Positions 54,067 to 56,232 of a DNA stretch of 57,285 bases are shown one piece after another. Source of the stretch: a virus. The notes under the pieces are model-generated. The model was given only the letters and a program-made list of their open reading frames with translations. It was not told the origin of the DNA and did not search any database. Numbering within the stretch: the stretch's first letter is position 1; every line of letters starts with the position of its first letter. Made by a program: the position numbers and the translations under genes. Location: positions 1-57,285 of the IMG/VR virus record IMGVR_UViG_3300046057_000055, one strand, 5' to 3'.

Positions 54067-54271
54067 CCGCGGGAGGGCGCTTGCTACCGAGCACGATGTG
54101 CCTGACGAGACGGTCGTCTATCGACACATCGAGACTGACACCGAGGTCAAACTCATCTCCCGAAGCGACGACGTCTACCGATTCCGCATCGCTGGCGAGC
54201 GGACGATGGAGCTCCCGACAGAGGACTGGCCGACCTACCGGCAGTTTCTGGAGGTCGATCGGTATGTCTGA
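54059..54271 (+). CDS. Hypothetical protein (70 aa)
   Basis: ATG 54059 is preceded by GGAGGAGG. Begins MRSRGRALATEHDVPDETVVYRHIE... Confidence 0.5.
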   Translation: MRSRGRALATEHDVPDETVVYRHIETDTEVKLISRSDDVYRFRIAGERTMELPTEDWPTYRQFLEVDRYV

Positions 54272-54506
54272 GGGCGGAGTTGAACGCGAGAAGACCCCCG
54301 ACGAATGTGAACTCTGCCGACTCGTCGGCTATCGCGGAGACACCATTAGCGAACCTGAAGGGATGGTGATTGTAGCCCGTGAGGACGGTGGAACGAAGAT
54401 AGTCCACTGTTGCGAAGGGTGTTCTGACGAGGTGTTTTCTGCACCCGTCTTCTGCGAATACGACTGGTCGGTAGAGCCGGAAAATCAGCAGGAGGCAGAC
54501 CGATGA
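54264..54506 (+). CDS. Cys-rich zinc-binding protein (80 aa) with junction-module head MSEGGVERE
   Basis: CELCR...HCCEGC. 8-nt overlap ATGTCTGA. Confidence 0.5.
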   Translation: MSEGGVEREKTPDECELCRLVGYRGDTISEPEGMVIVAREDGGTKIVHCCEGCSDEVFSAPVFCEYDWSVEPENQQEADR

Positions 54507-54832
54507 CTGGTCAGTCTACGGACGGTACTGAACGATCTGAGGGCGAACTGCTCCCGCCCCGCGACGGGGAGATCAACACGATCCCGGATGTCGAGTCCGG
54601 CGACAAGATCCGGGTCCAGTCGGTGTACAACTCGGACCCGAACCGAAATCTCACAGTCAGCGAGGTCCCCCGGGAGGATACAGTCATCCTCGAAGGGTAC
54701 GGGACTGAGTACGTCCTATCCGCCGACGACGGCATCAACTTCCGCAGAGTCTACCTCCAGTGGCAGTCCCGTCCGGAGGGCGTGCCCATCGCAAACGTCG
54801 AAGTCCGCGAGCGGGGTGGTCGAGATGTCTGA
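54503..54832 (+). CDS. Hypothetical protein (109 aa) with head MTGQSTDGTERSE
   Basis: ORF track. ATGA overlap. Confidence 0.55.
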   Translation: MTGQSTDGTERSEGELLPPRDGEINTIPDVESGDKIRVQSVYNSDPNRNLTVSEVPREDTVILEGYGTEYVLSADDGINFRRVYLQWQSRPEGVPIANVEVRERGGRDV

Positions 54833-55043
54833 AGACGGTGCTGACCGAGAGAGGATCCTTAGGACGTGTCCCGGATGTGGGACTGAGATGGATGTGTCGG
54901 ACGGGCCGTATATCTACATTGGCTACCATCTTCCCCCGGGTGACGGAGGGTTCTGCTGTTCATCCGAGTGCGCCCACGACATCATCGACAACCACTCACT
55001 ACGCACGGGAAGCGACCACAACGGAGGCGATCGCGATGTCTGA
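54825..55043 (+). CDS. Zinc-ribbon protein (72 aa) with head MSEDGADRER
   Basis: CPGCG...CCSSEC. 8-nt overlap ATGTCTGA. Confidence 0.5.
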   Translation: MSEDGADRERILRTCPGCGTEMDVSDGPYIYIGYHLPPGDGGFCCSSECAHDIIDNHSLRTGSDHNGGDRDV

Positions 55044-55065
55044 GGACGGTACTGAACGCTTCACC
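55004..55065 (+). repeat. Junction-module repeat, copy D (62 nt)
   Basis: cacgggaagcgaccacaacggaggcgatcgcgATGtctgaggacggtactgaacgcttcacc. Matches 56170..56232 in 58 of 64 aligned columns (hand alignment). Confidence 0.85.
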
Positions 55066-55200
55066 GACAAAAAGTGCGGGCACTGTGGCGGGGCGATGAA
55101 GACAGACGGCACCGACCTGTGGTGCCCTCACTCCCACGGACGGGGACAATCAGCAGACACGAGAAGTGACGGCTCAACGGAGGCGAGAGGCGATGAGTGA
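55036..55200 (+). CDS. Zinc-ribbon mini-protein (54 aa) with head MSEDGTERFT
   Basis: CGHCGGAMKTDGTDLWCPHSH. 8-nt overlap ATGTCTGA. Confidence 0.5.
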   Translation: MSEDGTERFTDKKCGHCGGAMKTDGTDLWCPHSHGRGQSADTRSDGSTEARGDE

Positions 55201-56203
55201 TCAATCCACGAGCGGTACTGACCGATTCCGGAAGCAGGCCCCGAAGCTCGTTGACGGGCAGCATCCGAGTTGGTACTGGCTTGTCTCCGGTGGCATCGAC
55301 TCGGTCGCCGCGTACCTCCTGACGAAGGACGCGATGGACGAGAACTACGGGAAGCGGCCGCTCATGACCTATCTCGAAACGAGAATCGGTCTCCCGTTCA
55401 ACCGGCTGTACGTCGAAGAACTGGCCGACACCTACGATGAACAGTTGTGGGGACTCCGGACCCACGAGAAGATCGAGGACCGGATAGCGAAACGTGGGAA
55501 GTACGCCGACCGTGACGACGCCGGACCTCCCGGAGCGGCCCAACACTCAGAAGTACAGAATGAAGTGAAGGGTCGGCAGCGCGAAACGCTGGCGAACCGA
55601 GACCCGGCTACGATTTACGTCACCGGCATTCGTGCAGATGAGTCCGAGGAACGGGCAGCCCACCCTAAGGGAGAGGTTTCCGGTGGTATTCGCTACGTCA
55701 AGCCCGTCTACGAACTCACGAAGAAAGAGTGCGCTGAAATAATCCTACGGCATCCAGAATGCCCGATTAACCCGGGCTGGTGGTGGAACCACTACACTGA
55801 CTGTGGGTGTTCTGCCAACGGAGATCCCGGTGAGAACGATACCGTTCAGAAGCGATTCCCCGCTTTCGGGCAGCGAATCCGCGAGTGGGAAGAAGCCATC
55901 CCCGGCGAAGGGCTACGTTCGATGCTCGGTTGGGACGGCCTGACAGCCGAGGAGAAACGGGCACGCAAGAGCGGCCAGAGACAACTGTCCCTCTGTGGCG
56001 ACGGCTGTCAGAGGCGGGTCCCTACTCCGATAGAGCAGGCGTTCAAGGCCCGAGCGTTTGGCGCATCCGTCGAAGAGGCTGTGGCTATCCTGCACGAGGA
56101 AGTCCAGCCATGGAGGGAGTTCCCGGACTTAATTCCGGCAACTGACGGAGGAACCAGCCGTTGCGTAGACACGGGAAGCGACCGACAAGGAGGCGATTCG
56201 TGA
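55193..56203 (+). CDS. PAPS-reductase-like PP-loop ATP pyrophosphatase family protein (336 aa)
   Basis: PP-loop SGGIDS (WLVSGGIDSVAAYLL) and GIRADESEERA. C-terminal Cys cluster (DCGCS, CGDGC). Head MSDQSTSGTDRFR. Confidence 0.75.
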   Translation: MSDQSTSGTDRFRKQAPKLVDGQHPSWYWLVSGGIDSVAAYLLTKDAMDENYGKRPLMTYLETRIGLPFNRLYVEELADTYDEQLWGLRTHEKIEDRIAKRGKYADRDDAGPPGAAQHSEVQNEVKGRQRETLANRDPATIYVTGIRADESEERAAHPKGEVSGGIRYVKPVYELTKKECAEIILRHPECPINPGWWWNHYTDCGCSANGDPGENDTVQKRFPAFGQRIREWEEAIPGEGLRSMLGWDGLTAEEKRARKSGQRQLSLCGDGCQRRVPTPIEQAFKARAFGASVEEAVAILHEEVQPWREFPDLIPATDGGTSRCVDTGSDRQGGDS

Positions 56204-56232
56204 TGTCTGAGGACGGTACCGAACGATTCACC
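56170..56232 (+). repeat. Junction-module repeat, copy F (63 nt)
   Basis: cacgggaagcgaccgacaaggaggcgattcgtgATGtctgaggacggtaccgaacgattcacc. See copy D. Confidence 0.85.

Follow-up and report, generated by a model that had tools for sequence, protein, structure and literature searches.

Coding junction modules recur at gene boundaries and homology breakpoints of a haloarchaeal viral genome

How phage genomes become mosaic has long been debated, with homologous recombination at boundary sequences set against random illegitimate joining followed by selection. Linker sequences are said to go back to the lambdoid modular theory of Susskind and Botstein, and boundary sequences were reportedly described in HK620 by Clark and colleagues in 2001. 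To our knowledge, clear linkers are rare, and for archaeal viruses only the intergenic, promoter-like motif of HGTV-1 has been proposed. Here we describe a candidate linker that lies inside coding sequence, would keep reading phase and coupling, and occurs in several haloarchaeal virus lineages and hosts. It stands at six consecutive gene boundaries of a 57,285-nucleotide (nt) viral sequence, IMG/VR record IMGVR_UViG_3300046057_000055 (positions 1–57,285; the window). The junction module, as defined here, is a tail that ends one open reading frame (ORF), an overlapping stop and start, and a head that opens the next. We consider it probable that these coding-sequence joints of translational coupling double as short homology patches for cassette exchange.

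Precedent for repeat-mediated shuffling comes from the promoter early stem-loops (PeSLs) of phage T4 (Arbiol et al. 2010, PMC2839356; Comeau et al. 2014, PMC4122927). Like PeSLs, the module is a short motif repeated along a hyperplastic region, where it marks the boundaries of many small non-essential ORFs (here six copies in 2 kb); indels and replacements between related genomes map to it, and direct repeats bracket single cassettes, predicting mini-circle excision. PeSLs are intergenic, with a sigma-70-type promoter and a terminator hairpin, whereas the module is coding, carries a Shine–Dalgarno (SD) sequence, an overlapping stop and start and protein ends, and has no hairpin. By inspection, no promoter consensus is present in the junction copy at 55004–55065, which is G+C-rich coding DNA and lacks a TATA-like A/T hexamer. 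Relaxed homologous recombination at short diverged homologies is documented in temperate phages (De Paepe et al. 2014, PMC3945230), and the haloarchaeal myovirus HGTV-1 has a TATA-box plus inverted-repeat motif before its ORFs (Sencilo et al. 2013, reviewed in PMC3950731). The module shares with that motif a haloarchaeal tailed virus as carrier, repeats at many ORF starts and a proposed role in genome shuffling; the HGTV-1 motif differs in being intergenic, promoter-like and reported from a single genome, and the two have no sequence relationship. Lambdoid linkers also place short homology at module borders, with the same sequence flanked by different genes and plausible as a recombination substrate, but they are mostly intergenic or at gene ends and their recombinases (Red, Rad52-like) are known, whereas the module has a common peptide and a coupled stop and start.

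On the expression side, overlapping gene pairs of Haloferax volcanii are strictly coupled by termination–reinitiation, and an SD in the upstream ORF constrains its C terminus (Huber et al. 2019, PMC6728339). Stop/start overlap and an SD inside the upstream ORF are common to these pairs and the module. Overlaps of the cellular pairs are mostly 1 or 4 nt, with no extended shared sequence, whereas the module mostly has 8-nt overlaps, with ~35 nt upstream and 25–35 nt downstream of the ATG conserved across unrelated genes. The module fits best among recombinogenic junction motifs, as a variant within coding sequence.

The six ATGs lie at 54264, 54503, 54825, 55036, 55193 and 56203, where a first-pass annotation of the sequence had placed them, and share the head core GACGGTACTGAMCG. 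Each junction joins co-directed ORFs, of which the upstream one contains the SD in its 3′ end; the overlaps are 8, 4, 8, 8, 8 and 1 nt, with no intergenic DNA. That each stop overlaps the next ATG is borne out at all six, with overlap types more varied than first described: ATGTCTGA (8 nt) at 54264, 54825 and 55036, ATGAGTGA at 55193, ATGA at 54503 and TGATG (1 nt) at 56203. An SD-like pentamer sits exactly at −14 in 6/6 junctions; it is the annotated GGAGG in five and GGTGG at 54825. The annotated Gly/Asp-rich upstream tails are present at four of the six and absent from the other two. The head spans ~25–35 nt and reads ATG TCT GAG GAC GGT ACT GAA CG (MSEDGTER) or takes a longer MS-QS-xGTER form; the tail, often present, spans ~35–45 nt and encodes ..RSV(D/H)TG(S/T)D..GGD before the stop, its last codons spelling GGAGG 9 nt before the next ATG. 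The common protein head was found at all six starts, but the sixth (56203) has no gene body and runs into promoter-like non-coding DNA. The junctions are listed below, with bit scores from a profile described in the next paragraph.

54250–54290, plus strand: junction 1; GGAGG 54250–54254, ATG 54264, upstream TGA 54269–54271; short head ATGTCTGAGGGCGGAGTTGAACGCGAG (MSEGGVERE); repeat-family copy D1 at 69%; 30.2 bits.
54489–54538, plus strand: junction 2; GGAGG 54489, ATGA overlap 54503, long head ATGACTGGTCAGTCTACGGACGGTACTGAACGA (MTGQSTDGTER); reference copy D2 of the repeat family, head core with 0 mismatches; 14.8 bits.
54811–54851, plus strand: junction 3; GGTGG 54811, ATGTCTGA 54825, head MSEDGADRER of the Zn-ribbon gene 54825–55043; 32.2 bits.
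55004–55065, plus strand: junction 4, repeat copy D; GGAGG 55022, ATGTCTGA 55036; Zn-ribbon gene tail ..RTGSDHNGGDRDV and stop; head MSEDGTERFT on gene 55036–55200; 38.4 bits.
55179–55228, plus strand: junction 5; GGAGG 55179, ATGAGTGA 55193, long head MSDQSTSGTDRF of the PAPS reductase; recurrent homology breakpoint at ~55224.
56170–56232, plus strand: junction 6, repeat copy F; GGAGG 56189, TGATG 56201–56205; PAPS-reductase tail ..VDTGSDRQGGDS and stop; orphan head MSEDGTERFT without gene body; 40.2 bits.

A repeat search of the window returned a five-copy family of 35 nt (54259, 54507, 54820, 55031 and 56198) and a 28-nt pair at 55004/56170. Copies D (55004–55065) and F (56170–56232) match in 58 of 64 aligned columns, exactly the first-pass count, and their local score of 49 lies far above the 14.5 ± 1.5 (maximum 21) of 200 dinucleotide shuffles. 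Allowing ≤3 mismatches, the 23-mer ATGTCTGAGGACGGTACTGAACG occurs three times against 0 expected in the window from shuffle controls; the 14-mer GACGGTACTGAMCG with ≤2 mismatches gives ten matches against 1.7 expected, five of them at junctions, +9 or +18 from the ATG. Ten junctions were used to build an nhmmer profile, which was run on both strands of the whole window. On either strand of these 57 kb only the six junctions score above ~7 bits, four at 30–40 bits and the two long-head variants at 14.8 and 6.6 bits; no minus-strand match, which a virus-encoded antisense copy of a junction would give, was found in the window.

MSE/MSD starts and G/D-rich ends are common in haloarchaea, and the 20-nt head pattern matches dozens of unrelated bacterial genomes in a 596-Gb collection, so that MS(E/D) starts, an acidic proteome and the SD constraint might be thought to generate the resemblance. 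We give chance or generic composition of this kind next to no credence as an explanation of the set, given the shuffle controls, the restriction of profile scores to six sites in the window and the behaviour of the bacterial matches, which cover the head half only (12–25 bits) where haloviral copies match SD and head together (28–40 bits). For the D/F pair and the GACGGTACTGA core, chance is refuted. Pattern scans also yielded matches that we set aside. The head-pattern scan of the 596-Gb collection gave 43 matches, of which 41 are chance occurrences in bacteria; the only haloarchaeal ones are L029 and L043 (described below). A metagenome scan gave a single match (L004), from a non-halophile and taken as chance, and a plasmid match in Halomontanus (L055) is host intergenic DNA, treated likewise.

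The head (MSEDGTER or MS-QS-GTER) and tail (RSV-TG-D--GGD, stop) are present in other haloviral contigs, in proviruses and in a Natronorubrum plasmid; throughout, L numbers denote these relatives. Heads occur in IMG/VR contigs of one sample series (L001/L003, L062, L069, L071 and L073–L076), in a Halobacteriales metagenome-assembled genome (L029), in Halovenus aranensis (L043), on a Natronorubrum daqingense plasmid (L054) and in short metagenomic contigs reached through PAPS-reductase homologues (L048–L053). All of these carry the same head, and often the same tail. Junctions aligned from six sources share GGAGGCG..TCG.GATGTCTGAGGACGGTACTGAACG.

The bodies behind the heads differ. We compiled 26 head-type starts, 23 of which had a usable protein and entered BLASTP clustering; these fell into one PAPS-reductase cluster of five and 18 unrelated singletons. 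Pfam identified DpdA and an S-adenosylmethionine (SAM) methyltransferase among the singletons, the rest being Zn ribbons or unknowns, and a further head-bearing gene in L075 is a DUF6884 member. The tail RSV(D/H)TG(S/T)D..GGD ends PAPS reductases, Zn ribbons, the methyltransferase, DpdA and others. Conversely, one body can have different ends: two orthologues of the 54825 Zn-ribbon protein (P0113 and P0114) keep the body (81% and 65% amino-acid identity) and differ in head and tail, beginning MTNDSSTGQEAII or MSDGDIEQEAIV and ending ..SLEVADVSE or ..SMEPGGDQS. Head-bracketed cassettes recur independently. In L050/L051 a PAPS reductase 55% identical to that of the window lies between two heads matching at 31/33 nt; in L054 an orphan head is followed by ~180 nt of A/T-rich, promoter-like DNA and then by the same 19-nt head on a real gene; and in L057 the 25-nt junction GGAGGTGGCCGATGTCTCCGAGTGA is present twice.

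Head conservation is at the nucleotide level. Copy after copy uses the uncommon codons GGT, ACT, GAA and CGA, which make up 11%, 8.4%, 20% and 8.5% of their families in the long genes of the window, and ACT GAx CGA TTC CGG is common to PAPS-reductase genes only 55–63% identical as proteins. The third-position T of ACT, GCT or GTT is kept when the residue changes (T, A or V). In most junctions this T preserves a TGA that lies in the frame of the upstream ORF, 4 or 7 codons past the stop of that ORF, and may act as a back-up stop.

The internal proteins of T4 carry a conserved N-terminal capsid-targeting leader on unrelated, polymorphic accessory proteins. The module likewise sets a conserved N-terminal head on otherwise unrelated accessory proteins; unlike the T4 leader it has a conserved C-terminal partner and nucleotide-level conservation. 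MSEDGTER or MS-QS-GTER at the N terminus and RSV-TG-D--GGD at the C terminus might on this model be protein tags for targeting, capsid packaging, processing or turnover. In favour of tags, the amino-acid sequence of each peptide is conserved on many unrelated bodies, a prohead protease of the XkdF type is encoded by the virus, and many of the bodies are DNA-modification enzymes, useful if delivered early. We nonetheless regard tags as improbable, given the rare codons conserved at synonymous sites, the many PAPS-reductase homologues and Zn-ribbon orthologues that do without the peptides, and the orphan copies attached to no protein. DGT(D/E) is moreover ordinary composition in the window, as part of acidic low-complexity sequence: the protein at 1583–2095, adjoining ParA, contains an extended low-complexity stretch, acidic and rich in DGTD, STDS and NDGN, which accounts for extra GACGG.ACTGAC motif matches at 1658–1806.

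Homology breakpoints between relatives coincide with modules in at least eight comparisons. Between the window and L003 (IMGVR_UViG_3300046025_000059), the only DNA in common in 20 kb is 56172–57033 (98.96%); near-identity begins at the orphan-head ATG 56203, the tail upstream of it being only ~70% identical, and ends at 57033, inside an orphan tail. The PAPS reductase of L048 (93% amino-acid identity to that of the window) is ~97% identical in nucleotides from 55224, just past the head, to ~56183, inside the tail; its head reaches only ~68% identity, and distal tail and flanks show no relationship. L048, in which the gene keeps its head behind non-coding DNA, is in turn ~96% identical to L052 through upstream DNA and head, after which the bodies are unrelated. 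A 193-nt block shared by L069 and L071 (99%) stops 22 nt after the ATG, with unrelated bodies beyond. L075 is 98.9% identical to window 53852–54118 and is without the five genes from 54264 to 56203; it has a 34-nt island, 33/34 identical to window 55191–55224, before an unrelated 122-amino-acid (aa) gene and behind a different tail. L071 carries a 39-nt island resembling junction D in another operon, at the place of the window's Dam methylase.

Because relatives do differ in their cassettes at these boundaries, as several genome comparisons show, and because similarity outside the D/F pair does not collapse to the SD–ATG core and extends from ~35 nt upstream to 20–30 nt downstream of the ATG, the first-pass likening of these junctions to lambdoid linker sequences and T4 PeSLs is apt. 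Its accompanying statement that nothing of the sort had been described for archaeal viruses was too strong: a PeSL-like motif had already been proposed for HGTV-1, as an intergenic promoter with inverted repeat and not as a coding junction (PMC3950731).

The Dam site in L071 (IMGVR_UViG_3300046063_000071) provides a second polymorphism of cassettes, this one on the window's other strand. Relative to window 41917–44047, L071 is 98% identical on both sides of the Dam (D12) gene 42124–43038, in place of which stand ~270 nt that comprise a partial small gene along with a junction module and a Zn-ribbon gene of 50 aa.

We infer from these patterns that homology at the modules drives exchange through a recombination pathway, and that the joints are translationally coupled. 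In the mRNA, a module would be a termination–reinitiation joint, its SD holding the terminating ribosome for restart at the overlapping ATG. In the DNA, the same 30–70 nt would be the sole sequence common to otherwise unrelated genes, both within a genome and between co-infecting haloviruses, and since the modules are the only homology between such genes, homologous recombination would resolve at them; whole in-phase cassettes could be inserted, deleted or replaced with coupling intact. The 62/63-nt repeat around 55036–56203 would then be the footprint of an insertion of a Zn-ribbon and PAPS-reductase cassette, for example from a circular intermediate through a single crossover or from a donor through a double one, and the cassette should be excisable. 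Predicted products are a 1167-bp deletion joint, which links the 54825 tail and head directly to CCAGTTGTCGGGTACAGG without 55066–56232, mini-circles, and recombinant joints concentrated in 30–70 nt.

Several observations weigh against such homology-driven exchange. Breakpoints would be enriched at gene ends, too, if illegitimate joining were random and selection then favoured recombinants with intact, coupled genes. Several relatives were found by patterns that require parts of the motif, so the set is open to ascertainment bias. One breakpoint lies off the module: the left breakpoint between the window and L075, at 54118, falls 60 nt inside gene 54059. No recombinase or integrase was recognized among the 30 window proteins scanned (not every small ORF included), the D/F cassette turned up neither in an empty-site nor in an excised-circle variant, and among the isolate-derived halovirus genomes of a phage collection none has the module at blastn sensitivity. 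In the close relative L002 (IMGVR_UViG_3300046058_000043), 92–99% identical on both sides of the stretch concerned, ~8.6 kb of the window (53562–57285 plus 1–4932) are replaced by ~6 kb of unrelated DNA with its own ParA (L002 10426–16471), and the junction motif was not found in this replacement DNA. Heads within a genome are only modestly more alike than heads of different genomes (0.73 vs 0.65); with so weak a signal, concerted evolution of heads within genomes was set aside as well.

Gene 54059, whose product matches no Pfam family, gives a case of a conserved head and a swapped body with a different head sequence. Between L075 7018–7209 and window 54059–54271 the first 20 codons of the gene (MRSRGRALATEHDVPDETVV) are identical, and the rest of the protein is unrelated.

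The six junctions belong to a longer operon, read from the sequence and the ORF list:

53137–56232, plus strand: operon of ten small genes, predicted to be translationally coupled.
53137, 53558, 53721, 53938, 54059, 54264, 54503, 54825, 55036 and 55193, plus strand: starts of the operon genes.

Its stop/start overlaps are, in order, 8, 11, 11, 8, 8, 4, 8, 8, 8 and 1 nt, and every junction has an SD-like G-rich run inside the last codons of the upstream gene. This generic coupling pattern runs from 53558 on through ten consecutive junctions, of which only the last six have the head motif.

The operon bears on the reading of the module as an expression signal only, an optimized termination–reinitiation unit, possibly with a fail-safe second stop and a low-structure start, kept by translational selection; breakpoints would coincide with it since other recombinants are non-viable. 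The invariant −14 position of the SD-like pentamer speaks for this, as do the third-position T kept through residue changes, with its in-frame TGA in most junctions, and the head of the L048 PAPS reductase, which persists with no gene upstream; coupling of overlapping gene pairs is established in haloarchaea (PMC6728339). Since all ten operon junctions have the coupling pattern and only six have the head, however, the head would not be required for coupling. Orphan heads and tails stand in non-coding contexts, orthologous bodies work with entirely different heads and tails, and an island of 33/34 identical nucleotides between viruses with unrelated flanks points to transfer or common descent rather than to convergence. 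We judge an expression signal alone to be unlikely, though clearly a stronger contender than protein tags.

A co-oriented array of promoterless small ORFs with a repeated element at each boundary also recalls integron cassettes, each of which ends in such an element, and invites a site-specific system in which attC- or att-like junctions are used by a tyrosine recombinase. In L050/L051 the second gene downstream of the bracketed PAPS reductase is indeed a small Phage_integrase gene. Against this stand the lack of an integrase among the window proteins scanned, the location of the junctions wholly inside coding sequence, the absence of inverted-repeat or hairpin potential in them (a repeat search found no inverted repeats within junctions) and breakpoints spread over head, SD and tail with no fixed crossover point. 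Unlike integron cassettes, the element is coding and has no attC hairpin, and no attI and, among the 30 window proteins scanned, no integron integrase was found. We hold a site-specific system to be very improbable. A structured RNA element was also considered and rejected: fold z-scores run from −0.7 to +0.7 in five junctions and the sixth adopts a different fold, the consensus structure of the junctions reaching only −2.0 kcal/mol with 0 compensatory pairs and no covariation.

To return to homology-driven exchange, a candidate inserted unit lies between copies D and F, whose start-to-start spacing is 1167 nt:

55036–56203, plus strand: cassette of a 54-aa Zn-ribbon gene (55036–55200) and a PAPS-reductase-family gene (55193–56203).

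The second gene is a member of the PAPS reductase family, with putative catalysis, on the strength of a Pfam PF01507 (PAPS_reduct) match of 23.7 bits against a cut-off of 22.5 and of 111 homologues (P0001–P0111), most annotated PF01507. Of 46 homologues that were looked at, scattered members have the head and long tail, and the remainder open directly with M(T)RKQAPK and close with ..ATDGGxx before the stop. The gene's best relative among isolates, in HFTV1, is 27% identical and without head and tail. A search of IMG/VR for related loci with the PAPS reductase gave no match, and a homologue search with the 54-aa Zn-ribbon protein gave no candidate; because the latter yielded no homologue, the pair is untraceable as a unit.

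The orphan elements downstream of the cassette frame a block with a different organization:

56233–57012, plus strand: moron-like block between orphan head and orphan tail.
56243–56257, plus strand: hairpin GGTACAggcTGTACC, followed within the block by the TATA-like CCTTTATGG.
56310–56657 and 56660–56977, plus strand: the two genes of the block, the second a Zn ribbon, followed by a 75-nt spacer.
57013–57063, plus strand: orphan tail RSVYTGTDRSGEGDHAN and stop, in the spacer before gene 57053, the stop overlapping ATG 57053.

The orphan head at 56203 extends for 30 nt before the hairpin and the TATA-like stretch ahead of gene 56310, and at the orphan-tail site L003 reads RSVDTGTDYPRGDGGESH and stop. 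Because the block stands at 98.96% identity in the otherwise unrelated contig L003, it looks like a moron-type insertion with its own putative promoter. Under homology-driven exchange, orphan head and orphan tail (57013–57063) would be scars left where the promoter-bearing two-gene block replaced a body. A 300-codon ORF from 56161/56203 to 57063 was rejected as a gene, its product being R/S/T-rich and the ORF overlapping two well-formed acidic genes in other frames.

Modules bracket genes of the virus–host arms race: PAPS-reductase-like enzymes, DpdA and methyltransferases. A broader proposal, possible though doubtful, is a cassette grammar of haloarchaeal tailed viruses, proviruses and plasmids, in which accessory genes, with DNA-modification or anti-defence enzymes prominent among them, are framed by a standard coding head and tail and the joint is both reinitiation site and selected recombination linker. 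If so, any cassette would plug in phase into any operon of a co-infecting virus, a coding-sequence analogue of integron or PeSL exchange. On this proposal, the bases conserved beyond the SD, in the tail core GTAGACACGGG and the head core GGTACTGA with its putative in-frame back-up stop, could also be a tether of the termination upstream ribosome-binding site (TURBS) type or the operator of a common translational regulator. Head and tail profiles could in practice serve to find and delimit accessory cassettes in hypersaline metaviromes and to flag missed starts of small genes. Gene 54825–55043 is an example. The public call for this Zn ribbon (P0112) has 51 aa and begins at an internal Met after the first CxxC knuckle, whereas the orthologues show the head-bearing ATG 54825 to be the true start; overlapping starts of such genes seem to be missed by automatic callers.

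The window itself (G+C 64.6%) is a haloarchaeal tailed virus or plasmid-prophage, as its terminase large subunit, portal, XkdF-type prohead protease, ParA and Orc1/Cdc6-like ATPase indicate; it also codes for an HNH protein and three DNA methyltransferases, and no tRNA gene was found in it. When deposited phage genomes were searched for near and distant DNA matches, no halovirus was returned, and none of these genomes is close to the window. Relative to the L002 contig the window is circularly permuted.

Tail sequences show a further pattern among PAPS reductases. The ..ATDGGxx end of the short homologues is itself SD-bearing, and the long forms add RSV-TG-D--GGD as a second tail; an L053 protein that is not a PAPS reductase ends with the same double tail. 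From these sequences it looks as if tail modules can be stacked. The cultured Haloferax virus HFTV1 (L056, MG550112) has none of the modules, but its genes for the PAPS reductase (gp58) and for the DNA methylase two genes on (gp60) share their first 17 nt, AGAATGAGCGACTACAA; this repeat, at 3456–3474 and 4390–4408, brackets gp58 and gp59, and may be chance, MSDY being written in common codons.

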